A stretch of 48,252 nt of DNA, the filler included, from Stramenopiles sp. TOSAG23-2 (Eukaryota), in NCBI GenBank assembly GCA_900128395.1. It is 2 parts of 2 records of this genome, joined end to end, with 100 filler letters (N's around TTAATTAATTAA, not from the genome) between each part and the next. Parts side by side here need not be neighbours in the genome. Positions count along the whole stretch, not along the records: positions 24,203 to 48,252 come from LT649471.1; 1 more part is not named here. One strand, 5' to 3'. The number at the start of each line of letters is the position of its first letter. Position 1 is the first letter of the stretch. Positions 10,020 to 39,476 of this stretch are shown piece by piece. The position numbers and the translations under genes are program-made. Below the pieces are notes generated by a model. The model was not told the DNA's origin. It saw only the letters and a program-made list of their open reading frames with translations, and did no database searches.

Positions 10020-11252
10020 ATGTGTATAATAATCGAATGGTTGCTGCGCTGCTTTTGCGATCGCTTTTGTTGCCAAGAAAAGAATAATAATGCTGAAGAT
10101 AATAGTTGCTGCGGAAAAATATGTAAATTTATTGAAGATTCCTCTTTGAGAGTCCATCTCCTGATTGTTGGGGTGGTTTACAGTTTACTATTTATATGGA
10201 CTACCGTCTGCTTACCAATAATTTTTGGATCTAACATGATGTATGATGAGGTCGGGACAAATTTTATTTTCTTTTTCCTTTTCTGGATACCCAATTCTTT
10301 TGCATTGTTCCTGGTAATGGGGTTGTGGAAGAAGTTGGCTGTGGAAGAAGTTGGCATTTTCAAGTTGCTTGAAGAATTTAGCGAAAAATTCCCTGATACG
10401 GTATTTCATGGTTTGAGTTCATATAATTTATTGCTGATGTTCCTTCCTTGGACCATGTACCTTTTAATTGTGTACGACAAAGATCTCGTTGAGAGGTTGG
10501 CAGGAACAATCAAAGTGGAAGATGCACGGGCAATCGCAGAAGCTAACAAATTTGTCGAACCATTCTTCGTCTTCAAGAATGGATATATTGACGAGGAGCC
10601 CGATGCATGCTATCAAAATATGTATTACAAAGCAGAACCTGGCTGTCGATGGTTTTGCGATTATCCATCCTATGATCGCATCTGCCCAATTGTGCCCTCG
10701 GAGCAGGCGAACATAACATGTGAAGATATTGTGGGTTGGTATGGATACAACTTTTACAATGGCTCGATATCGACGTTTGGTTATCGTTATTCACCTAATT
10801 GTGATGATGGATTTTGCGTTTCTGGTGAAATAATACATCATTCTTTGCCAACGCTAAAGGAAGAAAAAGGAGAACACACACACAAATCTATATATCATGA
10901 TTGTAATACTATGTCGGAATTGCTGCTGTACAAATCTTTAGCTAAGAGGTTTATAGACGAAACGCCAATGAAATTTATTTCTCGATGTTTGTGGTTTGCT
11001 TTCAATTTCCTGTTTGTTGTTGTCGGCAGCTATTTCCTTTGGTGTAAAAAGGTGGAATGGAAACCCGCTGATGTGTCAGTGGCAGAGGTGATTGCGGAAG
11101 TAGAAATCCCTGACCGTGCCGATACTGACCGTAACATAAATATATCAGTGGCAGAGGTGGTTGCAGAAGAAGCAGAATGTCCTGACTGTGACATAAATAA
11201 TATATCAGTGGCAGCGGCGATAAATAATATAAAGCTAAAAAGCACAATCTAA
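10020..11252 (+). CDS. Multi-pass membrane protein with a Cys-rich loop, unknown function
   Basis: 410-aa ORF with about four hydrophobic segments, Cys clusters and repeated C-terminal (I/V)SVAEV(I/V)AE motifs. Confidence 0.75.
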   Translation: MCIIIEWLLRCFCDRFCCQEKNNNAEDNSCCGKICKFIEDSSLRVHLLIVGVVYSLLFIWTTVCLPIIFGSNMMYDEVGTNFIFFFLFWIPNSFALFLVMGLWKKLAVEEVGIFKLLEEFSEKFPDTVFHGLSSYNLLLMFLPWTMYLLIVYDKDLVERLAGTIKVEDARAIAEANKFVEPFFVFKNGYIDEEPDACYQNMYYKAEPGCRWFCDYPSYDRICPIVPSEQANITCEDIVGWYGYNFYNGSISTFGYRYSPNCDDGFCVSGEIIHHSLPTLKEEKGEHTHKSIYHDCNTMSELLLYKSLAKRFIDETPMKFISRCLWFAFNFLFVVVGSYFLWCKKVEWKPADVSVAEVIAEVEIPDRADTDRNINISVAEVVAEEAECPDCDINNISVAAAINNIKLKSTI

Positions 11253-25098: not shown

Positions 25099-27828
25099 TT
25101 AAAATTTTACTTTCTTCACAATTTTTTTAACTTTTTTATGTTGCTTCAAATGTTCTTTCATTATTTTACGAACGCGATGAGGATCTTCTGGTAAATACGT
25201 AACTAACTCGTTCAAAACACGACGATCAACTTTTTTACCACTTGAATATGTCAACGTTTTTTTCTCAATTGCATCGCGTAGTTGATACACATCTCGTTCA
25301 TTAATATATACACCTCTGCGACTCATATTTTTCATCACTTTTAATGCTTCCTTATATTTTTTATGACGAAGGAACGATCGTAATATTGTGCCCTGTAATA
25401 TAGTACTCGATACACCAACACCTCTTTTCACACTATCTTCATATATTTCCTTTGCCATTTGAAAACGATTTGAACGACTGTACATTTCAATTAACAATTT
25501 ATATGTTTTAGGATTAGGTTCAACATTGTATTTAGATTCAAACATTTCAAATAATTCTCTAGCTCGTGTTAAGCGATAGGTTGATGTATACATACGTAAC
25601 AATTTATTTAAATGATGAATGTTTGGTTGGATTTCATATGCATCCAACATTTTATCAAAACAGTTTAGTGCACTTTCAATAACGCTTTCTTCATTAAAAT
25701 TACTCCGTAATACTTGTACATCCGTTGTTGTTGTTACCAGTTCCTTCAAACCAATTGATTCAATATGTTGATCTTGTGGAGATGTAATAGAATCTTTCAT
25801 ATAATCCATTATGTTTTCTTCCCAGTCTTCCTCTTTGTATGTACCATCAAATTCTGCTTCCGCTCTGGCAGCATCGGCGGCATATTTTATCATAACCGTT
25901 GTTTTCGGATCTTCCATAAAATCATCATCTTCATTGTCATATTCTTCATCATGGAATTTAGAAAAGCTATCATCATCATCATCATCATCATGGATCTCAT
26001 CATCATCATTGTTATCTACTATCAGGTTATCCTTGTCATCAATTAAAAATACATTTTCTGTGTCATCTGCTATATTTATGAAAGATTTTTCTTCTTCGTC
26101 CCGTTCCTCCATCGATTTGTCGCTATTATTATTATTATTATTATTACTACTACTATTACCTACATTACTATCATCTAATAAATTAGTAATAAGGCTATCA
26201 CTGTCATTATTAGTACCCGCACCTAAAAAATCATGCTCGCCCCCATCATCGCCATTTACGCCAAATGGATTTCCCCAAAATTCATTAAGTTTTTCAACGG
26301 CATCATCTTCTCGTTTTGGAAACATACTCAAACGCAAGAAATTCCAATCTAATTTTGGCGCAGCTAATGTTTTATTTTGACGGATTCGTTTCAATCGATT
26401 AATTTCAAATTTCACTCGTTTACGTTCTTTTCGTGGCACAATAATACTATTGTAATGAGTTTCAAATAGTAATTCAAACATTTTACTATATTCTTGTATG
26501 GAAACTTCAATAAATGAATGACTATCTAAAATACTCATCAATCGATATGCACTTTGTAACTCACCACAGCGACTGTATGCAATCATTAACGCTTTAAATG
26601 TTTTAAAATTTGGAAAAAATCCATTTAAATTATTAAAATGATCGACGAAACATTTTTCTGTTAAATATAATATATGATTCGTGGTTCGACGGTCACCCCA
26701 TGTTTGATGAGCAGGAGACAATTGTACTTTAGCACACGCCATTAATTTTATATTGGCCATTTTCATTGTCATTTCATATCCTTCACTTTGGGCTTCAGAT
26801 AAATAACTTAAAACACCTTCGTAATTATCTCGTAACAATTCATATTGCATCAATGCTTCATACATTGGCAATGTTGGTAGCGTCCCGCTACGAAACATTT
26901 CGCGATATATACCAATTGCATGTTCGTATAACATTTTTTGCAACTTTGGATCTTCATTTCTATAACTGGCATATGTTGCGTAGCCTTCCACTAATTTAGC
27001 ATATAAATAATTTTTATCATGCATAATACGCCTATGTTTTCTTTCATTCTCATTTCTTAAATATTTTTCTTCTAAAAATATCAATTCATCCAAACGGTCA
27101 TAAACTTTTGGGGCAACGTATTCATCCATTGCCCTTAAATATTCAATGGAATTAGGATCGATCTTAAACATAACTTCATCTATTTCTAAATAGACTTCTT
27201 GGGTTTTTGGCGTACATGTTGCTAATGTATATCCATATTGTGTTTTATTTTTCCACTCTCTGTTTTTTAATAATATATCGTATAATTTAGACATTTGATT
27301 TTGCTGCGATGATAAAAGATCATTATCAGCAGTAAAATGTGAAAGCATATCAGCTTCATCCCCTTCAATTGCTAATCGTTGCTCGTAATTTTGTGGCAAA
27401 TACCGCTGTTGTTCTTGTATATAATTAGTATTATTGTTGTTTTTATTACTTTTTTTCGGTTGTTTAAATAACTTATTTTTCATCTTTTGTTGTTTAACCA
27501 TTTGATAATGAGCACGTTTTTCAGCTCGAGTTTTCCCATACTTTCCCTTCGCACCACGACGTGGCTCATTATTTAATTTATTGCGCCACATTTCTTGCTT
27601 ATTTTGTACTTGTTTCGATGTTTTTCTGGATTGTTTATGTCTTTTAAATGTTGAAAAGTGTTTATTATTATTATGAAATATTAACATATTTTTATTATGA
27701 CTTATCTTATTATTGTAATTTGCATTAATAGCATGTGTAAATTTTATATTATTATTTGTATTTTTCATCCACAACAAGGTATCCCTTGCCGTTGCCGTTC
27801 TTATTTTCCATATATTTTTCAACAACAT
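25099..27828 (-). CDS. Pentatricopeptide-repeat (PPR) protein, probably mitochondrial
   Basis: PPR-like motifs (PTLPMYEALM, PNFKTFKALMIAYSRCG, PNIHHLNKLLRMY, PNPKTYKLLIEMYSR), a basic presequence-like N-terminus and a long acidic insert. Confidence 0.85.
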   Translation of the reverse strand: MLLKNIWKIRTATARDTLLWMKNTNNNIKFTHAINANYNNKISHNKNMLIFHNNNKHFSTFKRHKQSRKTSKQVQNKQEMWRNKLNNEPRRGAKGKYGKTRAEKRAHYQMVKQQKMKNKLFKQPKKSNKNNNNTNYIQEQQRYLPQNYEQRLAIEGDEADMLSHFTADNDLLSSQQNQMSKLYDILLKNREWKNKTQYGYTLATCTPKTQEVYLEIDEVMFKIDPNSIEYLRAMDEYVAPKVYDRLDELIFLEEKYLRNENERKHRRIMHDKNYLYAKLVEGYATYASYRNEDPKLQKMLYEHAIGIYREMFRSGTLPTLPMYEALMQYELLRDNYEGVLSYLSEAQSEGYEMTMKMANIKLMACAKVQLSPAHQTWGDRRTTNHILYLTEKCFVDHFNNLNGFFPNFKTFKALMIAYSRCGELQSAYRLMSILDSHSFIEVSIQEYSKMFELLFETHYNSIIVPRKERKRVKFEINRLKRIRQNKTLAAPKLDWNFLRLSMFPKREDDAVEKLNEFWGNPFGVNGDDGGEHDFLGAGTNNDSDSLITNLLDDSNVGNSSSNNNNNNNSDKSMEERDEEEKSFINIADDTENVFLIDDKDNLIVDNNDDDEIHDDDDDDDSFSKFHDEEYDNEDDDFMEDPKTTVMIKYAADAARAEAEFDGTYKEEDWEENIMDYMKDSITSPQDQHIESIGLKELVTTTTDVQVLRSNFNEESVIESALNCFDKMLDAYEIQPNIHHLNKLLRMYTSTYRLTRARELFEMFESKYNVEPNPKTYKLLIEMYSRSNRFQMAKEIYEDSVKRGVGVSSTILQGTILRSFLRHKKYKEALKVMKNMSRRGVYINERDVYQLRDAIEKKTLTYSSGKKVDRRVLNELVTYLPEDPHRVRKIMKEHLKQHKKVKKIVKKVKF

Positions 27829-27852
27829 GATTGCACAATGAGATAATCTTGG

Positions 27853-27883
<31 letters not shown>

Positions 27884-28327
27884 TACTCGCTAGTATATTT
27901 TCTTCCATCTTTCATCTCGTCTGCTACTAATAAATTATTTATTTGTTGTATATAAAGCTTTTATGATCATTTTATGTGGTGAGATGTATGTGCATCAAAT
28001 GATAGAAGAATTCGCAAAAAGTTACAAACGCCGTGGAAGGCGAGGACCCCTGCCCCAAGAAGAAAGGGGTTTGTAGCAGTGTTGGGATTGGATGAAAATT
28101 TAAGGGTGGAAATGTCGTTAAAGTGGTATGGGAAAATAGTGGATTGGTGAATTATATTAGTATGTATATAGCATTTGTGTTCGACCTTAATTAGAAGAAG
28201 AGGATTGAGAGTGAGTAATGAAAAATTATTTTAAAATAAAAGTAATACTGGTTTCATTTATAGTGGAGTAATAAAAAATAATTTAAAAAAACGAAATGGT
28301 TTATTTAATAATAAAAGGTATCCTGTT

Positions 28328-29656
28328 TTATTTATATATATCCATCCCTTTCACTTGTTGATACCCGTTTGATCCAGATCTTTTGTATTGTTGTATAGCA
28401 TTTAATTGTGATTTCATATTATCACTTAGTTGATTATTACGTATAGTCAATGATCTTAAAGTATTGTTCGTTTTTAATCCATCAATAATATTTTGTATTC
28501 CACCATCATCAGTAATATTATTATTACTTAGGTTCAATAGTCTTAATGTATTGTTTGTTTTTAATATTTCACCAATACTTTGTACGTCAGTAATATTATT
28601 TTTAGATAGGCCCAATGTCGTTAATGCTTTGTTTGTTTTTAATGCTTCACCAATACTTTGTACATCAGTAATATTATTGTTATGTAGGTTTAATGTCGTT
28701 AATGTTTTGTTTGTTTTTAATCCTTCACCAATACTTTGTACATCAGTAATATTATTGTTATGTAGTTCCAATGTCGTGAGTGTATTGTTTGTTTTTAATC
28801 CTTCGCCAATACTTTGTATATGAGTTATATTATTATTATATAGGATCAATGACGTTAATGTATTGTTTGTTTTTAACGTGAGTGTATTGTTTGTTTTTAA
28901 TCCTTCGCCAATACTTTGTATATGAGTTATATTATTATTATATAGGATCAATGACGTTAATGTATTGTTTGTTTTTAATCCTTCGCCAATACTTCGTACA
29001 TCAGTAATATTATTATTTTCAAGGGACAAGTACGTTAACGTGTTGTTTGTTTTTAATCCTTCAGCAATACGTTGTACGTCAGTAATATTATTATTAGATA
29101 GGCCCAATGTCGTTAATGTTTTGTTTGTTTTTAATGCTTCACCAATACTTTGTACATCAGTAATATTATTGTTATGTAGTCCCAATGTTGTTAATGTATT
29201 GTTTGTTTTTAATGCTTCACCAATACGTTGTACATCAGTAATATTATTACTATGTAGGGACAAGTACGTTAATGTATTATTTGTTTTTAACAATTCACCA
29301 ATATGTTGTACGTCAGTAATATTATTATTGTATAGGTCCAAGGATGTTAATGTATTGGTAGCTTTCAATGCTTCGCCTATATTTTGTAAATCTTCGTCAC
29401 GGATGTTCTTCTCAGGTAAATCTACGCCACGTGCATCAAAGTTTGTGTCATATTTTCTTTGTAATACAACTTTAAAATAATACCAACGCAAGGGATGGTA
29501 TTCAAGAAATTTTTTACATGTTTTCGCAAACATATTTATCATTGCAAGTGTATCATCGTTGAAATATGCAATGAGACCTGGTTTTGTAGAAGTACCAATA
29601 CATATTTGTAATATACCAGGTAAGTCTTCAAAATGTCGAGTAAGTAACGATGACAT
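28328..29656 (-). CDS. F-box-like domain + RI-like leucine-rich repeat protein (about 12 x 26-aa repeats)
   Basis: Repeat LKTNxTLxxLxLxxNNITDVQxIGEx. N-terminal FEDLPGILQIC...IAYFNDD...INMFAKTCKKFL. Confidence 0.9.
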   Translation of the reverse strand: MSSLLTRHFEDLPGILQICIGTSTKPGLIAYFNDDTLAMINMFAKTCKKFLEYHPLRWYYFKVVLQRKYDTNFDARGVDLPEKNIRDEDLQNIGEALKATNTLTSLDLYNNNITDVQHIGELLKTNNTLTYLSLHSNNITDVQRIGEALKTNNTLTTLGLHNNNITDVQSIGEALKTNKTLTTLGLSNNNITDVQRIAEGLKTNNTLTYLSLENNNITDVRSIGEGLKTNNTLTSLILYNNNITHIQSIGEGLKTNNTLTLKTNNTLTSLILYNNNITHIQSIGEGLKTNNTLTTLELHNNNITDVQSIGEGLKTNKTLTTLNLHNNNITDVQSIGEALKTNKALTTLGLSKNNITDVQSIGEILKTNNTLRLLNLSNNNITDDGGIQNIIDGLKTNNTLRSLTIRNNQLSDNMKSQLNAIQQYKRSGSNGYQQVKGMDIYK

Positions 29657-30130
29657 TGTATATTAATATATGTATATGTATATATATATATATCGATATA
29701 TATGATTATCTCTTTTCTCTTAGCTTTTCGGTTGTTTTATTTAATTTCTTCCGTTGTTTTGCAGTATCATGGTGGTGTTGTTATATGTATCCTATGTATA
29801 GGTTTGTTATGGCCCAATGGAAATTTAAGGCCGGAAATGTTGTTTTTAGATTATTGGGGAAATAGTCGATATAAATAAGGAAGTGTAAAAGTGAGAATTG
29901 GTGAAGGCGTTGGAGCGCATTTGTGATTATTCTAGATAGTAGAAAGGGATGGAGGGTGAAAGTAAATTTTCCTTAATTGGATGGAAGAGGTTAAAATAAG
30001 GTCAAAGTTGCCGTTTGGGGGTGGTATTTTGTTAAAATAGGTTGCAGGTCAGTATATATAAAGTAAAAAATAAGATAAAAAATAAGATATAAAAACAGAG
30101 AGAATGTTTTTAAAAGTATAGTTAATTTTT

Positions 30131-30391
30131 TTAGTGATACACACGCTCCCAAGAATCCGCCCATTGAACCATTTCATCCAACGACCACCATTGAATGTCA
30201 TCGTCGTATACCACGTCCCGGGAGAAACCGGTCCCCATCGGATATCTCGGGATCAGCGGACACAGCAAGAACTTCGTGACGTAATTTGTTCGACTAATTC
30301 TATCGATTGCATAGATGTCAACATTTGTACCATTTCTGGCCAAGATCACGTTGTTTATTTTTAAGTTAGATAATAAAGTTTTTGTATCCAT
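30131..30391 (-). CDS. Small orphan protein (~86 aa)
   Basis: ATG at 30391 (MDTKTLL). GC-richer than its flanks, globular-looking composition, preceded by an AT-rich leader like neighbouring genes. Confidence 0.5.
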   Translation of the reverse strand: MDTKTLLSNLKINNVILARNGTNVDIYAIDRISRTNYVTKFLLCPLIPRYPMGTGFSRDVVYDDDIQWWSLDEMVQWADSWERVYH

Positions 30392-30850
30392 TTTTGGAGT
30401 CACGTATATGTATGTGTATTGATGTAGATGTATATTTATTTATATATATTTTTCGTTGTAATATATTTATATATATTTTATTATTTGGATACTTTTATTC
30501 TGTATAATACTTTGTTCTATACTTTTGTTGTATCTATTTTGTTTTGAAAGGCTGGGTATTTTTTGCAGTATATATCACTATAGTTTTTTAATATAGTTTG
30601 TTTTGAAAAAAAGGCTGTAGTCTGTATTATACTGGTGGTGGTCCAGGCGGTGCCGTTTAGTCGCACTTGAAGGAGGAACGACTAAACTGCTAAATGGACT
30701 GCGTGGTATAGCATGTAGGTAGGGATTTAGTAGTGTAGGGAGTGGTTAATATGGCTAGTATATTGGTGTATTATCTATTATCTAAATGGCTGCATTGAAA
30801 TCAAGAAGTATGCGATTACAGCAAGTGAGGTAAGATTAAACGAATCTGTT

Positions 30851-32437
30851 TTGAATTGTTATAATTATGAAGAATTCAACAACAACGTATTGGTACCGAT
30901 GACGCAGGATGAGTACGGGCAGTTGAGTCGGATGTTTGGGGCACCGTTTCGGTCCGTAGATGCCAGTGTAAGTGGTTACATGGTGAATATGCACATGGAG
31001 CAAGCCAGGCTTGTGCATAATGTAGCAGAATCGTCGTTTGAGTGGAACTTTTTTTATGCGATGGTTCATCATTGGTTTGGGTTAAGTCATCCTGTGGGAA
31101 AAGAGCGGTATACGTATGGATTCATGCGTCTAGTGCATCGAGGCGTGAAAAATTTTGTTACCCGTGAGTATAAGAGAGGATACGATTGCGGTTTTCATGG
31201 AAGAGGTTGTGCGATTAAAGGTGTGGGGACAGTAGGATTTGACGTCGATGAAGGGAACTGGTGTAATTGGTTCTGTTGCAAGGCGTTAAAATTTCTGGCC
31301 CGGAAAGATGGTCAAACGTTGTTTCAAAAGTTTGGTCGATTCATAGAAGGTAAGCAGCTGACCCGGAAGGACGCTTATTTGCAGATATTACCAAAATACG
31401 AAGGCGGCCAAGTAGTGGCGGGGCCTTGGTTAACAGGAAAAGAAAGCGGGTCTGGATTTGATGAAAATGTGGATAAATTGCGAGTAATGTTCGCCGAACA
31501 TCCGCGGTTCCCGAAGGTATGGAATGCAAGGCAAAATGTGTTGTTTGAAAGGATGAAGAGGGATTTGACGTCGGTCGGCGTATACCTTGTTGTTGCGACG
31601 GACATGAAGGTGGAAGTATGGTCATGGCCAGTGTATTGGAATGCGGAGAAAAAAAGTGGCGAACCACAGGCGAAAAAACAGAAATCAGAATCAGGAACGA
31701 TTGGAACGATTGAAGTGAGGAAATGCATGTGTTACTCGTTCAATTCATGGGTAGATTTGTGGGCGGAGGTGAAAGAAGGCTTGTGCCTTAACATCCGGAA
31801 GAAACATTTCTTACGTGGAAACAACGTAGAGGTGGTGCAATTAACAACGAATAATGTGGGCAATGTGGTTGCTATGAGTGAAACCGTTGTAGGTCATGAG
31901 ACACGGGGACATAGTTATGTGTTGCAAATCGTCAATCGGGATTTGGACAATGCTATGGAAAGGAAAGTGGAGGGATATATTGACGCTGAAACCATGGCGA
32001 ATTTGTATGGGGGCGAAGCATGCGAATGTGAACAGGCTGTGGAGCGATGTGCCTGTGTCTTGAAATGGGAGGCTAAGCGAGAAAAGTTACTCGCACCGGC
32101 GCGCCGGCGATCGCAGTTGAGAAGAGAGGAGAACAAAAAGAAGAAAAAGGCGGGTAAAAAGACGGAGAACACCAGCAACGTTCCCGGTGATAGAAATGCC
32201 GAAGGTGCAAAGTTCAATGCAGGAGAGGGTGAAACATCGGGTGATATAAATGCCGACAGTGCGGATGAAAAGTCCAATGCAGTAGAGGGTAAAACATCGC
32301 TTGTTACGTCTGATCGTGAATATGCATCCAGTGAGTCTGGTAATTTCGATTTCATGCTTGCGAATGATGAAGCAGTGTTGGGATCGGATGACAATGAAAC
32401 GCTGGAAATGTCGCTAAAAGGGAGTGACAGTGAGTAA
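30851..32437 (+). CDS. Orphan protein (~510-528 aa) with Cys/His clusters, basic NLS-like tract and acidic tail
   Basis: Long ORF with visibly higher GC and different codon use (GCG, CGG, ACG). The start is uncertain: TTG at 30851, first ATG at 30899, or a possible short upstream exon from 30786. Confidence 0.8.
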   Translation: MNCYNYEEFNNNVLVPMTQDEYGQLSRMFGAPFRSVDASVSGYMVNMHMEQARLVHNVAESSFEWNFFYAMVHHWFGLSHPVGKERYTYGFMRLVHRGVKNFVTREYKRGYDCGFHGRGCAIKGVGTVGFDVDEGNWCNWFCCKALKFLARKDGQTLFQKFGRFIEGKQLTRKDAYLQILPKYEGGQVVAGPWLTGKESGSGFDENVDKLRVMFAEHPRFPKVWNARQNVLFERMKRDLTSVGVYLVVATDMKVEVWSWPVYWNAEKKSGEPQAKKQKSESGTIGTIEVRKCMCYSFNSWVDLWAEVKEGLCLNIRKKHFLRGNNVEVVQLTTNNVGNVVAMSETVVGHETRGHSYVLQIVNRDLDNAMERKVEGYIDAETMANLYGGEACECEQAVERCACVLKWEAKREKLLAPARRRSQLRREENKKKKKAGKKTENTSNVPGDRNAEGAKFNAGEGETSGDINADSADEKSNAVEGKTSLVTSDREYASSESGNFDFMLANDEAVLGSDDNETLEMSLKGSDSE

Positions 32438-32693
32438 AATATACGTAATATACAGATAGAGAATTCAAATATTAATATAAAACCATAAGACTTTCAGGAG
32501 AAGCTTCTCGTGCATCATATCTTAAAACGTGCAACAAATAATGTTGTCATAGGATTTGCAGTTATAGTATCCATATTTTTAACATTTAATTTCATTTGTT
32601 GTTCTTTTTTCCTCAGTTTCATTTGTTAATTGTTTATCGTGCTCTGCTATTTTTTCATATATTTCATATACGTACGCTTTACTTTACGTGCGC

Positions 32694-33926
32694 CTATCCC
32701 CTTGTCCCTCCAGCCTTTTTTATTGTTTTAAAAAGTATTTGCTGGATCGGGCTAGTGTTATAATATGCCAAGTCCAGGGGTGTGCGGCCCCACTTGTCTT
32801 TCTTATTAATGCTATCCACAGACATATGAGCTAATAACAACTCAATCAACTCAGTAGTCGTTTTTTTATTTTGTGCAGCTATATGCAAAGGGGTGAATCC
32901 AGCAACACCGGTTGTATTAGGATCAGCTTCACATTGTTCAATCAAATATTGAAGTATAGGAAAATGTTGTTTCAGTGCAGCTGCCATTAAAGGCGTACAT
33001 TCGTATTTACCACAGACAGATGTACCTAGTTGACTTTCGTATTGTGTTATATTTGCATCTGCAATCAATAATTTTACATCGTCCAAACGGCCAAGTTGAC
33101 ATGCACATACTAATGGCGTACCACGTGGACATTCTGCATAATATTTCTTTTCTAAGGTAGATGCATCCGGATACATGATTTCGACTATGTATTTTGCTAA
33201 GTTGAAATGTTTATTCTTTACAGCTATTTGCAAAGGTTTTCCTATTTTACCAAAACTATCGTAACCGGATCGACTGACAGTGGTCTTTGCACCATTGTAG
33301 TTTGCAACCAATAGTTTCACATCCTCAAGACGTCCGTATTCACATGCACATACTATTGGCGTACCCAGTGGAAATTCCTTTTTGTAATTTCGCACTAACT
33401 CTGTTTCATCAGCATATGCAATATCTACCAAATAGTGAAGTATCTGTTGATGTTTGCTCTCTGCAGCCGCCATTAAAATCCCACCAGGTCGATTTACGTA
33501 TTCTTTCAATGTCATCCCATCCCCAAGCCATGTAGTGGCTGGGCGTTGCCTAACGGGAGGTAGAGGACCGGCGGAATTTGTTGAAAGTTTTGATAAACTG
33601 CGAGTAATGTTCGATAAAACAATGCAATAATATGATTTATATATTGTTGCTGTGGTAAGAAATCGTTTAGTGGTGCAGGCAAACATATTCACTAACGAAC
33701 GAACATCATTACGAAGATATGGTATGATTGTTTTGACGCAGATATCATCAATACCAGGCAAGGTTGAAAAATCATAAGTGGATTGTGGGTGTCCAGTATG
33801 TAATTTCGTTATCTCAAATTTTGCCATGGCGGCCAGGCGTTGCAATGCATTGCGCTTGGACTCCTTATCTTTACCAGCAGTAGATAAAACGTCATTCATT
33901 CTTTCCATAAATTCAGTATTATTCAT
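32694..33926 (-). CDS. F-box-like domain + ankyrin-repeat protein
   Basis: Ankyrin motifs GTPIVCACEYGRLEDVKLLV, GTPLVCACQLGRLDDVKLLI, TPLMAAA, GFTPLHIAA, GRTPLDLA. N-terminal FSTLPGIDDIC...IPYLRND...VNMFACTTKRFL. Confidence 0.9.
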   Translation of the reverse strand: MNNTEFMERMNDVLSTAGKDKESKRNALQRLAAMAKFEITKLHTGHPQSTYDFSTLPGIDDICVKTIIPYLRNDVRSLVNMFACTTKRFLTTATIYKSYYCIVLSNITRSLSKLSTNSAGPLPPVRQRPATTWLGDGMTLKEYVNRPGGILMAAAESKHQQILHYLVDIAYADETELVRNYKKEFPLGTPIVCACEYGRLEDVKLLVANYNGAKTTVSRSGYDSFGKIGKPLQIAVKNKHFNLAKYIVEIMYPDASTLEKKYYAECPRGTPLVCACQLGRLDDVKLLIADANITQYESQLGTSVCGKYECTPLMAAALKQHFPILQYLIEQCEADPNTTGVAGFTPLHIAAQNKKTTTELIELLLAHMSVDSINKKDKWGRTPLDLAYYNTSPIQQILFKTIKKAGGTRG

Positions 33927-33985
33927 TTTTATTATTAATTATATATGTTATACATTAATTTTTTTGCCTTTTTAATATTTTGATT

Positions 33986-34200
33986 GTATATATACGACGC
34001 ACGTATGTATGTTCTATTTGATATATCTAAAATGATAATACTAATTGTGTGATATGATGTAACACGTATTTTTGAATATATCTAGTAGTAAGCGTTCTGG
34101 CTTGTTACTATTTTGATCGTATATATACGACGCATGTATCTATGTTTTATTTGGTATATGTGAAATGATAATAATAATATTGTATAATATGATTCAATAT
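33986..34200. repeat. Diverged ~80-bp direct repeat upstream of the ankyrin gene
   Basis: GTATATATACGACGCA.GTAT.TATGTT.TATTTG.TATAT.T.AAATGATAATA at about 33986 and 34119. Confidence 0.8.
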
Positions 34201-36200
34201 GTTACGTATAATAACAAAAACAATATATAACTTGATATCGTGGTTTTGTTATATTATATGTAGCCGGTGGTGTTGGTGGTAAAGTTTGTGATTGTCGCAT
34301 TGTACTATAATACATATGTGTAATATATTGTAGTATTATTTATTATATTATTATTTTTTATTTATTATATTTATTTATTATTATTGCTATTATTATAGGT
34401 CTAATAGTACCAGCCAGGCCAGAGGTATTGTTGTTACTAGTATTGAAATTAGTATTATTTGTTTTTTTGTTTGTTGGCTATTATTAGTGAAATTAGTATG
34501 CCTGGTATGCTGGTATGAGACGAGGACTTTGCTCTAGAAGGAGTCGTCTGGAAATCGGACGCATCGATTAAAGTAGCTACAATACTGTATGTTGTACCTA
34601 GGTCAATAGGCAGGAGGTGTCTACCTTTTTTTTTTAAGTGACTTATTTTGAGTGGTAACAGAATTATGGGTTGTTTTCCTACTTGAATACAACGGAATAC
34701 AAAATATATAGGGAAGAAATTGGAAATTGTACAATCTGTAATATAACAGGCATCAAAAAGAAATTATTTTATGCATATGGACCAAAAACATAACCATTAT
34801 AAATGTTGCCTTAAGTGCGGGAACAGAGTTTATAAAATCATAAAATATATTTAACCTTAATTACGGGACGATCCACCATCCACAATCTAAATCTAAATTT
34901 AAATCTAAATCCATGGATATTTTAAGAAGTCAGGTGCATATAGGTAAAATGGCAACATTTGGAGTACGCCGTATATTATACTAACGTGATGTGTATCGGA
35001 TTTCGTACAAAACCTCTCTGTTAGCCATGTAATGTCATAAGTATGACAAATTGGAGGCTGTATACTTGTTTTTAGGTGGTGTTTTGATTGTACATGTATG
35101 TGTGTATGCACGATAGTAAGGTATGGGACTGGCAGGTAATGTAAGTGGAACAGGAGTATATAAGTTGTACGTTATTTAATATATTCATAATTATTACGTC
35201 TTCTGACAAAGGTTCAATGTGCATTGTATCGAACGATTGTTTGGCAGGTTTCTATACTTCTTACAATACCGTCACTGTCCAATGTACATGGTATAAAACT
35301 CCTCTTTGCAGTTTTGTTGCAAATCCAATTGTGACGACTAAACTTGTCTTTCATAATTCACGAAACGGCCTACGATGCTATGTATATGGTACAACAGTCG
35401 GCTTTTTATTTTAGTCCCAATACCAATTTTGCAACTAAAATTGCCGATAAGAAAATTACGCCACCTTTTTGCAAAAAAAAATGGCCACCTTTTTGATAAA
35501 AAAAAGGGACAATCGTTTACGCCTACACAGGTACTCAGTGAGGCAAAACCCTACTTAACAACATTTTGATAGGAAAAAAGACTAGTAAGTAAAGTTCATT
35601 AATCTTTACCTACCCTTTGATGTGTACACAGTTCCCCTTATAATAAAATAGACAATTATACGATAAAACAGTATACAATTTTCGTATTCTTATGACATAA
35701 TTCGTTTTTTATCCCAATACCTTATTTTAACATATATTTTTTTATTTCCTTTACTAACTTCTTTTATTAAAACCCCTACACATCAGGGCAGGGAATTATT
35801 ATATATATTATAACAGGTGCACAGCAGGCGGCCCAAAACCAACAGGAAGAGATTTTAATTGCATTTTTTACATTTTCTTCGATGAGCCTTTTTTTTGCGA
35901 ATAACATTTTAATTTGTTTCTAATGATATTCCCATATTAAATATGTAGAAATCTGCCTCAGCAAATCTAAATCAATTTCCACCACGTAAAATTGTGTGTG
36001 CGAATATATATATTGCACTATTGGATACATCGAATAAAAATAGAAAGTATAATAGAGGACGATGAATCATTGTATGAAAGGAACAATTTCATATTCCGCT
36101 TTATATAATCTATCTGATTTATTTAAATACCACTTCGACCCCCCGCGCATTCAACATATTATTTGTATACAAATTAAAATAACAACAAATAAGAATAAAG

Positions 36201-39200
36201 ATGGATGCATTGTTTGATGTATTTAATACGGATGTGATAGAGGAGGATGATCAAAAAAAGAATGATAATGTTAAAATACTTGAAAATGATGATAATAATA
36301 ATAATAATATTACTGGTAAGAAACGAGATAATAATAACAACAACAAGAATAACGATGATGAAAATTCAACAATTGTAATGTCAAAAAAACAAAAAGTAAA
36401 TAATGATGATGATGAAGACAGTAATAAGAATGAAACATCTGCACTTAATGCTGATTCACCACGTCCAATGCCGACTATTGTTACTTTAACTAATAATGAT
36501 GAAGCACCAAGACCTGATAAAAAAACTTGTCGACATGAAGTTGCATTACCAGTTTCTTATACGGTCGACCAAGTAAAAGGACGACCAGATCCTAAAGCAA
36601 AACGTGCTAAGGAATACCCATTCGTACTAGACCCGTTTCAATCAAAAGCTGTTGATGCATTAGAGCGTGGACAATCCGTTCTAGTATCTGCACACACTAG
36701 TGCTGGTAAAACAGTAGTTGCTGAATATGCCATAGCAATATCTTTACGAGATAAACAACGTGTTATTTATACATCTCCTATTAAAGCATTAAGTAATCAG
36801 AAATATCGTGATTTAGCAGATGAGTTTGAAGATGTTGGTTTAATGACTGGAGATACGACTATTAATCCAAATGCAAGTTGCTTAGTGATGACAACTGAAA
36901 TTTTACGAAGCATGATATATCGTGGATCAGAAGTTGTTCGAGAAGTTGCATGGGTTATCTACGATGAGGTACATTATATGCGTGATAAAGAACGTGGTGT
37001 TGTCTGGGAGGAAAGTATAGTTTTATTACCAGATAAAGTACGTTTTGTCTTTCTTTCTGCCACTATACCAAATGCCAGAGAATTCGCACAATGGGTTAGT
37101 AAAGTTCATCAACATCCATGTCATGTTGTTTATACGGATTATAGACCAACTCCATTGCAACACTACATGTTCCCATTAGGTGGTGAAGGAGTATTTTTAG
37201 TTGTAGATGAAAAAGGTCAATTTCGTGATGATAATTTTTCGAAAGCAATGCATGCATTAGGTGGTAGCGAGGAAGAAGATATTGAACGTAAATTAGGATT
37301 GCATGGTGGAAATGCAAAGGGTAATAATAAGAAGAGTAAAAAAGATGGTAAAAAAGGAAAAGGCAATGTAGCTGCAGATTTAGTACGTATTGTTGAAATG
37401 GTCATGAAAAGAAATTATGATCCAGTTATTTGTTTTAGTTTTAGCAAACGAGATTGTGAAGCATATGCCAATTCCTTAATGCGTAAAAATTTTGATTTCA
37501 ACGATTCAGAAACAAAAGGTGCAATTACACAAATATTTAAAGCTGCCGTTGAAAATTTATCAGAGGAAGATCAAAAATTGCCACAAGTGGAAAAAATGTT
37601 ACCATTATTAAAGCGCGGTATCGGTATACACCATGGTGGACTGGTACCATTAATCAAAGAAGTTGTTGAATTGTTATTTCAAGAACGTTTGTTGAAATGT
37701 CTATTTGCGACTGAAACATTTGCCATGGGAATTAATATGCCTTCGAAAACTGTTTTATTTAGTAATACTAGAAAATGGGATGGAAAAGAATTTCGCTTCA
37801 TACGTCCTGGGGAGTATATACAAATGTCTGGCCGTGCTGGAAGGCGTGGTATTGATGATCGCGGTATTGTTATACAAATGCTTGATGAAAAGTTAGAACC
37901 AGAGGATGCTAAAAACATATTGCAAGGTGGTGCAGATCCATTAGAAAGTTCATTTCATTTAGGTTACAATATGTTGTTAAATATGTTGCGAGTTGAGGAG
38001 ATCGACATCGAATTTTTAGTTAAAATGTCGTTGAAGCAACATCAAAATGAAATCAGACGCCCTGGATTAGAGGATGAGTTGAAACAACTAGTTATAAAAC
38101 GAGATGAAATCAATATAGATCTTGAAACTATTGTTGGTACATACTTTACTATCCAACAACGTTACAAAGAACATTGTGAAAAAATCGCTAGTATAATTTC
38201 ACATCCAAAATATTGCGTACCATTTTTACAACCTGGACGTTTGGTTTACATTCGTAGCAACAACAGCCAAATTAAGGAGGGATGGGCTGTTTTAATACGA
38301 CATAAACATGTGCAAACATCAACAATTAATAGTGCACGTGATGAACGAGAACGACATTTAATAGAAGTTGTACAGAGAATCAGTATTATAAAATCCAAAC
38401 ATGAGGATAATAATGATGGCGATGATGATGATAATAATAATAATAATAATAATGTCAACAAATCTGATGGAAAAGTTAAATTTTTTGAAGTTAATTTATC
38501 AAACTTACGCCAAATTAGCACTTTACGTTTGTATGTAGGTAATAATTATAAGAAAGAACAAAGTCGTGTAGCATTGTGGGAGACCGTTGATGAAGTCTTT
38601 CGTCGTTTCGAGAAAAGCAATTTAGAATATAATTTACCATTGTTGAATGCAATTGAAGATATGAAAATACCAGATAGTCAAGGTGAATTCAATACAATAT
38701 TGAAAAGTAAACGGGCAGATAGTAAATTGTTACGGGAACATGTATTACACGATCGTGAGGATAAAGATGCACTTTTGAAAAAATATGAAAAAAAATATAC
38801 AATTATAAAAAAAATTAAATCGCAAGAAGATGACATTAAAGGCACACATAGTATTGAAGAAATGCAGGAAAAAATAAAATGTATGAAAACTGTGTTACGA
38901 ACATTAGGTTTAATCGATAAAACGAAAGATGTTGTACAATTAAAAGGACGCGTAGCAAGTGCTATTAGTACGAGTTGCAATGAATTGTTGGTTACTGAAT
39001 TAATTTTTACCAATGTTTTCAAAGGTATGAATGCTGGACAAATTGCAGCTTTATTATCATGTTTTATATACGAAGAGAAATCAAATCTAGAAAAACAGGA
39101 GGAACATATACGTAAAGAATTGGAGCAACCATTTCGTTTATTAAAAGATAGCGCAAAACGTGTTGCAGATGCAATGAACGAAGCCAATGCATTGGAAGAT

Positions 39201-39476
39201 ATGACTGTTCAGGAGTTTGTTGATCAGTACAATCCAGGATTAATGGAAATTGTATATGAATGGGTAAATGGGAAAAAGTTTTATGAGATATGTAAACTCG
39301 ATCGTAAAATATACGAAGGTACAATTATTCGTTGCATGCGCCGTTTGGAAGAATTAATTAATGAATTACAAAAAGCAACTGCAGTTGTTGGTGATGATGT
39401 TTTGAAAGAAAAATTTGAACAATGCAGTAGCAAAATTAAACGTGATATTATATTTGCTGCAAGTTTGTATTTGTAA
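36201..39476 (+). CDS. MTR4: Ski2-like exosome RNA helicase MTR4 (DOB1/SKIV2L2)
   Basis: AHTSAGKT, SPIKALSNQKYR, DEVH, LSAT, QMSGRAGRRG, an arch insertion and C-terminal IKRDIIFAASLYL. Confidence 0.95.
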   Translation: MDALFDVFNTDVIEEDDQKKNDNVKILENDDNNNNNITGKKRDNNNNNKNNDDENSTIVMSKKQKVNNDDDEDSNKNETSALNADSPRPMPTIVTLTNNDEAPRPDKKTCRHEVALPVSYTVDQVKGRPDPKAKRAKEYPFVLDPFQSKAVDALERGQSVLVSAHTSAGKTVVAEYAIAISLRDKQRVIYTSPIKALSNQKYRDLADEFEDVGLMTGDTTINPNASCLVMTTEILRSMIYRGSEVVREVAWVIYDEVHYMRDKERGVVWEESIVLLPDKVRFVFLSATIPNAREFAQWVSKVHQHPCHVVYTDYRPTPLQHYMFPLGGEGVFLVVDEKGQFRDDNFSKAMHALGGSEEEDIERKLGLHGGNAKGNNKKSKKDGKKGKGNVAADLVRIVEMVMKRNYDPVICFSFSKRDCEAYANSLMRKNFDFNDSETKGAITQIFKAAVENLSEEDQKLPQVEKMLPLLKRGIGIHHGGLVPLIKEVVELLFQERLLKCLFATETFAMGINMPSKTVLFSNTRKWDGKEFRFIRPGEYIQMSGRAGRRGIDDRGIVIQMLDEKLEPEDAKNILQGGADPLESSFHLGYNMLLNMLRVEEIDIEFLVKMSLKQHQNEIRRPGLEDELKQLVIKRDEINIDLETIVGTYFTIQQRYKEHCEKIASIISHPKYCVPFLQPGRLVYIRSNNSQIKEGWAVLIRHKHVQTSTINSARDERERHLIEVVQRISIIKSKHEDNNDGDDDDNNNNNNNVNKSDGKVKFFEVNLSNLRQISTLRLYVGNNYKKEQSRVALWETVDEVFRRFEKSNLEYNLPLLNAIEDMKIPDSQGEFNTILKSKRADSKLLREHVLHDREDKDALLKKYEKKYTIIKKIKSQEDDIKGTHSIEEMQEKIKCMKTVLRTLGLIDKTKDVVQLKGRVASAISTSCNELLVTELIFTNVFKGMNAGQIAALLSCFIYEEKSNLEKQEEHIRKELEQPFRLLKDSAKRVADAMNEANALEDMTVQEFVDQYNPGLMEIVYEWVNGKKFYEICKLDRKIYEGTIIRCMRRLEELINELQKATAVVGDDVLKEKFEQCSSKIKRDIIFAASLYL

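Follow-up and report, generated by a model that had tools for sequence, protein, structure and literature searches.

Leucine-rich-repeat and ankyrin proteins of a marine stramenopile share an N-terminal module that may be a cryptic F-box

We analysed a 48,252-nucleotide stretch of DNA from Stramenopiles sp. TOSAG23-2 (assembly GCA_900128395.1; this whole stretch is called the window, and positions are counted along it) and found that a leucine-rich-repeat (LRR) protein, P0001, and an ankyrin protein, P0002, encoded there share a small N-terminal module. As judged by sequence comparison, their genes are two members of a lineage-restricted, multi-copy repeat-protein family of an AT-rich, intron-poor marine protist. 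They lie on a 7.8-kb segment that also contains an orphan gene and that recurs, with other flanking genes, in a second contig, L018. In the explanation that we favour, the module would be a constant docking head, its most probable identity being a cryptic, divergent F-box that binds Skp1. Through this head, fast-evolving arrays of LRRs or ankyrin repeats, which would recognise the targets, would be coupled to one shared effector complex, an SCF (Skp1-cullin-F-box) ubiquitin ligase. We hold this explanation as a whole tentatively, with somewhat less than even confidence. Throughout, P-numbers denote proteins and L-numbers denote contigs or loci from the module scans; the module of the ankyrin-protein type is called A-type and that of the LRR-protein type L-type.

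Both module-bearing genes are open reading frames (ORFs) on the minus strand. P0001 (442 amino acids (aa); 28328..29656) consists of an L-type module (aa 6-65; 29462..29641, minus strand) followed by about 13 repeats of 26 residues, and matched the Pfam families LRR_4 (9.2e-26), LRR_6 (1.7e-12) and LRR_NXF1-5. Repeat analysis and translation placed the tandem array at 28430..29455 (minus strand), with a period of 78 nt (26 aa) and the core N-N-N-I-T-D; its one irregular step, of 102 nt, is a recent partial duplication. P0002 (410 aa; 32694..33926) runs from a leader helix through an A-type module (aa 50-104; 33615..33779, minus strand) and a linker to ankyrin repeats (Pfam Ank_2, 1.4e-31). When the two proteins were compared by BLASTP, aa 6-65 of P0001 aligned with aa 50-104 of P0002 (23/60 identical, 33/60 positives, E 1e-8), with a single 5-residue gap corresponding to an insertion in the L-type copy. 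This was the sole significant local match, the other pairs having E values of 40 and 60. Since the module is conserved across the family described below, the similarity is far beyond chance. Searches of the whole window with both modules (tblastn) found only these two copies, with next best E values of 0.45 and 0.062.

Much of the original prediction for this region was borne out by these comparisons. It had proposed that the LRR and ankyrin proteins share an N-terminal module, and the nucleotide ranges given for it (29465-29632 and 33615-33770) agree with the matched residues. The similarity was said to stop at a V-L pair and to give way to unrelated repeat arrays; the BLASTP alignment indeed ends at a common V-L, and the Pfam matches beyond it are LRR_4 in one protein and Ank_2 in the other. 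Two orphan genes had been placed between the module genes, and both ORFs in question (30131-30391 and 30899-32437) lack Pfam matches. The pentatricopeptide-repeat (PPR) and MTR4 genes expected on either side of the cluster were both identified by their domains.

Paralogues of P0001 were found in L001-L009 at 54-93% protein identity (best single segment each), and L018 holds a copy of the ankyrin gene that is 97.6% identical. The L-type paralogues P0027-P0042 start with M-A-S-L-V-T, a T-rich run, R-R-R and an acidic stretch, after which the module begins; the LRR protein of the window (29639-29656) is without this leader through an in-frame gap. RNA-library contigs of X17 lay over the ankyrin gene (records 12-16) and over the LRR module (records 5 and 11), which demonstrates presence, transcription not being proven thereby.

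The module comprises 55-65 residues, is N-terminal and predicted to be helical, and follows the pattern F-x-x-L-P-G-I-x-x-I-C, Y-[LF]-x-[ND]-D, N-M-F-A-x-T-x-K-x-F-L, Y-Y-x-x-V-L. An eight-module profile was run with HMMER against all 1,835,955,588 protein representatives and retrieved only 24 at E<=0.001, 20 of these at <=1e-10. A word-based search with the ankyrin-type module gave 22 proteins, 18 of them with ankyrin Pfam domains; the same search with the LRR-type module gave 16, of which 15 carried LRR domains and one (P0030) ankyrin domains. Scanning metagenome contigs for the module yielded 20 loci, half of them (10) under one record prefix. GC content was 0.29-0.35 in 19 of the 20, with 0.39 in the 1.2-kb L020, and all family members were found on AT-rich marine eukaryote contigs. 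The paralogues adjoin unrelated ordinary genes, for example a nucleotidyl-transferase gene and genes for two different WD40 proteins, and DNA similarity of other loci to the LRR gene of the window ends at the coding region. By these searches the family is small and isolated in sequence space. It is modular and multi-copy as foreseen, with 24 representatives, 20 metagenome loci and LRR, ankyrin or hybrid partners.

Neither a viral origin of the family, which had also been suggested, nor a bacterial one found support. Among IMG/VR viral contigs, 74 pattern matches included no relative of the module. In 185,579 prokaryote species genomes there were 31 pattern matches, and the sole nominal relative, L021 in an archaeal genome, was rejected as a family member: it is a chance match in a frame full of stops. 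No PF12937 match was found in the archaeal genome of L021. As a separate observation, one short contig, L014, carries two tandem A-type module-ankyrin genes (L014:503-1111 and L014:1411-2406).

We then asked what follows the module, assigning partner classes by regular expressions in 67 sequences with at least 40 residues downstream, among which P and L entries are partly redundant. Ankyrin motifs were present downstream of 29 of the 37 A-type modules and LRR motifs downstream of none (0/37). L-type modules were followed by an LRR-type linker in 23 cases out of 27, and by LRR motifs only in one more; two of the 27 (P0030 and P0053) had an ankyrin-type linker instead. P0030 is ordered module-ankyrin-LRR, and in P0050 an L-type module occurs together with a faint ankyrin match and the leader helix of the A-type. 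This conserved helix precedes the module in A-type members and in P0050, and in every member but one long ORF the repeats come after the module. Module type tracks partner and hybrids are few; domain exchange is therefore real but occasional. The description of the family as recombining is thus right for two or three hybrids among 27 L-type members, but the exchange is limited and no A-type module was found with LRRs.

Two further sequences carry the module in unusual surroundings. The end of P0026 (285 aa), which is otherwise thioredoxin-reductase-like (PF07992 and others), is a fragment of an A-type module; a short contig that is chimeric, or a gene call that reads through, is the probable cause. 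A long ORF, L011:2873-11572 (plus strand), is a single frame of 2900 aa with five ubiquitin domains, four of which end in L-R-L-R-G-G followed by Met. Units unrelated to one another (C2H2 zinc fingers, an ankyrin/LRR-like unit and MORN repeats) separate the ubiquitins, and an A-type module-ankyrin protein, with its module at aa 2374-2432, forms the final unit. After each ubiquitin stands an S/T-run with R-R-R, a leader like that of the L-type paralogues. The ORF has the look of a polyprotein spaced by ubiquitins, from which ubiquitin-specific proteases would free the parts; a search of the literature turned up nothing bearing on this idea. At aa ~1060-1110 of the same ORF, a long T-run is followed by F-T-L-P-G-G ... 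I-I-L-S-Y-I-D-D, which by eye resembles the module and a textbook F-box. This unit was detected neither by the module hidden Markov model nor by Pfam.

Whether the module is an F-box was addressed by several approaches, and the original claim that it is F-box-like was not established. An AlphaFold2 model of the A-type module contains three helices (16-28, 32-41 and 50-66; mean predicted local distance difference test (pLDDT) 77.6, predicted template modelling score 0.56), and a three-helix domain, here predicted from shallow alignments, N-terminal to LRR or ankyrin arrays has the placement of an F-box. A language-model search with P0002 aa 22-110 gave as its best named cluster 'F-box domain-containing protein' (0.90), and the ten best family-bearing matches all belonged to the F-box family or clan. 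Within the K-x-F-L motif, F-L is invariant in 14/14 aligned rows and K is present in 12/14. The 26-residue N-N-N-I-T-D repeat resembles the cysteine-containing LRR type of F-box/LRR (FBXL) proteins, a comparison with the familiar consensus and not a computed one. Between L-P and K-x-F the module has about 6 residues more than textbook F-boxes, and a regular expression for the textbook F-box motif had no match in any ORF of at least 100 aa in the window and the 20 loci.

The profile and structure searches weigh against this identification. Pfam F-box families (PF00646, PF12937 and others) at E<=10 matched none of 18 family sequences or segments (the 8 modules and 10 more), with HMMER filters discarding most matches above about 0.1, and no Pfam F-box was found at E<=1 in full-length P0001 or P0002. 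A 14-module profile run against all Protein Data Bank (PDB) chain sequences gave five matches at E 0.16-0.91, to proteins such as spidroin and saposin, with no F-box protein at E<=10. Foldseek searches with the module model returned one match in PDB (E 6.6), not an F-box, and 12 in BFVD at E>=2.8, none named F-box. With a predicted model of P0001 aa 1-150, comprising the module and three LRRs (pLDDT 79.3), there were 488 PDB matches, all at E>0.001, with LRR proteins at E>=5e-3. The best 40 of the 488 were internalin B, tropomodulin/leiomodin, TAP/NXF1, NLRP1, Roco and other LRR or axonemal entries, and among these 40 there was no Skp1 or F-box complex title and no F-box/LRR protein. Both structure models come from shallow alignments (14 and 23 rows). 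The L-P pair occurs in just 9 of 13 aligned modules, and the 5-residue insertion of the L-type module falls at the first helix of the A-type model. The language-model match is itself weak (115/256 features shared, as against usually at least 170 for proteins of the same family, by a calibration not made on protein parts). In favour of fast evolution are the recent duplication within the LRR array and the differences between the window and L018 copies, which amount to 11 non-synonymous and 2 synonymous changes in the ankyrin gene and to about 34 and 8 in the orphan gene. The resulting ratios of non-synonymous to synonymous rates (dN/dS), about 1.6 and about 1.2, are near or above 1 and, at such small counts, compatible with diversifying selection or relaxed constraint.

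These results could equally be read as describing a helical domain particular to this lineage and not related to F-boxes, serving in dimerisation, localisation or as some other docking head, with an F-box-like pattern that is convergent or coincidental. No sequence-profile or structure search linked the module to F-boxes; the family is tiny and isolated, with nothing beyond its 24 representatives at E<=0.001. The module also exceeds the 40-residue F-box in length, has a conserved helix before it in A-type members and P0050, and accepts an insertion within the first of its predicted helices. Such a domain sits less easily with the exclusively F-box clusters among the best family-bearing language-model matches, or with a position, helix count and choice of LRR or ankyrin partners that are those of F-box receptors. 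Moreover, a helical domain of 60 residues such as this would normally fold on its partner, and the negative tests have low power for such a domain. We regard an unrelated head domain as a serious possibility, though short of probable; set directly against F-box/Skp1 docking, the two are about equally likely. That the module is an F-box docking Skp1 we rate at a little under one half, and F-box identity is at present a reasonable hypothesis, not an established one. According to parts of a study of protist F-box proteins (PMC9485057), F-boxes in these organisms vary extensively, insertions make the motif hard to detect, and F-box proteins are under-detected.

The genomic setting of the two genes was examined through L018. 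The shared segment (28020..35797) aligned by blastn in four blocks at 93-99% identity: 28020-28649 (99%), 30783-34743 (97.5%), 34810-35198 (97%) and 35249-35811 (93%). Outside these blocks L018 had no match to the window. The genes that flank the segment in L018 are for a guanylate-binding protein and for another PPR protein, related to the PPR protein of the window through generic repeats only, and MTR4 is absent from L018. In pairwise alignments the shared segment runs from 28020 to 35797, both ends falling in unique sequence, and the segment lies between divergently transcribed genes in both contigs. Each copy is incomplete in its own way. L018 has a full orphan gene of 564 aa, but its LRR gene is a start-less 3' remnant, truncated exactly at the repeat array; the window has a full LRR gene, but the first part of the orphan coding region is lost.

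A candidate empty site was seen in a 762-nt RNA-library contig that covers 27419-27984 and continues at 35803, so that 7818 bases are left out, with 25 letters on the short side. This joint (27984->35803) lies within 36 and 6 nt of the ends defined by L018, and because it coincides with both of them an empty-site haplotype is plausible; taken alone, the contig is a weak hint. Gaps in contig cover (for example 30812-32415 in X2, X15 and X17; four runs compared) do not show absence. The alignments show a segment that is accessory and rearranging and that in L018, a closely related contig, sits elsewhere in the genome. The 'accessory island' that had been predicted is supported, at 93-99% identity with other flanks in L018 and with one contig hinting at an empty site.

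The larger of the two ORFs between the module genes is a GC-rich orphan gene (30899..32437, plus strand). It encodes 512 aa here, against 564 aa in L018, and is truncated at its 5' end; homology between the two copies starts at 30783, inside the extension. Its GC content at third codon positions (GC3) is 0.476, and that of the 86-aa ORF (30131..30391, minus strand) 0.517, compared with 0.175-0.285 in 14 of 15 window genes outside the segment and 0.397 in one ORF; the LRR gene, at 0.203, is host-like. Only four relatives of the orphan protein were found in all searches, including two database proteins among 5373 candidates, and there were none in Pfam, PHROGs, Atlas, PDB or IMG/VR. Conserved motifs are D-C..G-x-H, F-C-C and E-V-W-S. 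One homologue, 28% identical (L009:653-2179, minus strand), is divergent to an L-type module gene (L009:3049-3114, plus strand), so that the two stand side by side as in the window. The 86-aa ORF has no Pfam or PHROGs family; no relatives of it were found, and it may not be a gene.

The remainder of the segment (33927..35797) is non-coding, and no tRNA or Rfam family was found in the segment. L018 has about 800 extra bases between the blocks ending at 35198 and starting at 35249. Summed contig depth over the non-coding stretch 34822-35222 was very high (447 in X4, marine metagenome), and a joint 30562->35248, with 20-letter sides, was seen in two runs near the site of the extra bases. The 34822-35222 and 35198/35249 region may be a small repeated element.

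The changed flanks in L018 and the candidate empty site are also what would be expected if the segment were mobile or viral cargo, such as an integrated piece of a giant virus or Polinton-like element, or a transposon of a new kind, with the orphan gene as the element's own. The deviant GC3 of the orphan gene and the 86-aa ORF fits this, as do the recurrence of an orphan homologue beside an L-type module gene in L009 and the position between divergently transcribed genes in both contigs. Near both segment ends the alignments show an 8-nt GC-rich inverted motif. However, neither terminal inverted repeats nor a target-site duplication were evident at 28020 or 35797, and Pfam and PHROGs searches of the segment ORFs found no transposase, integrase, polymerase or capsid family. 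Neither the module nor the orphan protein has relatives in IMG/VR, the LRR gene has host-like GC3, and other family members stand singly and scattered beside ordinary genes, their DNA similarity not reaching past the coding region. We therefore consider mobile cargo unlikely. Less probable still is an assembly error that produced both the different flanks and the empty site, the cluster in truth being fixed between PPR and MTR4. Repeated LRR and ankyrin families do draw many metagenome contigs and many spurious joints, the empty-site joint rests on one RNA-library contig flagged as unreliable, and the L018 LRR gene breaks off exactly at its repeat array. Against this, the identity blocks take in about 1.9 kb of non-coding DNA that is unique, as well as the orphan gene, present as a single copy, they end sharply in unique sequence and not within a repeat, and the two ends of the joint match independently derived segment ends. 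The most far-reaching proposal is a new mobile cassette moved by the orphan protein, whose cargo would be hypervariable adaptor genes with a head from a highly divergent, hitherto unrecognised F-box class; target-recognition modules would then be moved and reshuffled as whole units, like a self/non-self or anti-parasite system. We think this very improbable.

The window around the segment is AT-rich (GC 0.25-0.39 in most 1-kb bins) and is filled by long uninterrupted ORFs for eukaryotic proteins, among them CobW, calpain, GH99, PPR, MTR4, SET and alpha/beta hydrolase proteins; an anoctamin match of one ORF was below the cut-off. Outside the segment on one side is the PPR gene (25099..27828, minus strand), which is not an orthologue of the PPR gene adjoining the L018 copy. 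On the other is the MTR4-type helicase gene (36201..39476, plus strand), with DSHCT, MTR4 beta-barrel and DEAD domains. The ORF with a GC3 of 0.397 (10020-11252, plus strand; 410 aa) has no Pfam family and stands out in GC3 as the segment's orphan gene does; no similarity was found between it and the 512-aa orphan protein.

If the module does bind Skp1, it would represent a lineage-specific F-box class missed by current profile libraries and would offer a handle on the diversification of ubiquitin-ligase adaptors in uncultured marine protists. If it is not an F-box, it would simply be a small domain family, narrow in range and not described before. The presence or absence and the relocation of a 7.8-kb segment with two module genes and an orphan gene of foreign-looking codon usage are a concrete instance of accessory-genome dynamics, in an organism known only from single-cell or metagenome data.

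Returning to the module as a putative F-box head, one parallel in architecture is with FBXL proteins. Here too a small N-terminal helical head, with three predicted helices and nearest to F-box clusters in the language-model search, is followed by 26-residue LRRs with an I-T-D core. Unlike those proteins, the module has no F-box profile match and found no FBXL among the best 40 of 488 Foldseek matches. It is longer than the ~40-aa F-box, has L-P in 9/13 only, and its Skp1 binding is putative. In poxviruses the F-box-like domain is C-terminal, whereas the module of the window is N-terminal, P0002 shows ankyrin families only, and no viral relatives were found. Poxviral ankyrin/F-box (PRANC) proteins (PMC9414399) are alike in joining an ankyrin array to a short ligase-docking domain and in being multi-copy and fast-evolving. 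P0002 has the same head-then-ankyrin order as Legionella AnkB-type proteins, which carry an N-terminal F-box and ankyrin repeats (PMC2790608); no sequence relationship to them was found, and the family of the window is eukaryotic and nuclear. The F-box/BTB and LRR families of Parachlamydiaceae are bacterial and showed no detected homology to the module, but offer another lineage-specific expansion (PMC4209131) of adaptor-like repeat proteins. The cryptic F-box proteins of Dictyostelium, found through the Skp1 interactome (PMC9485057), differ in being backed by Skp1 co-purification. Their N-terminal F-box-like sequences are seen only if inter-helix insertions are allowed, and in many of them LRR, WD40 or ankyrin domains come next.

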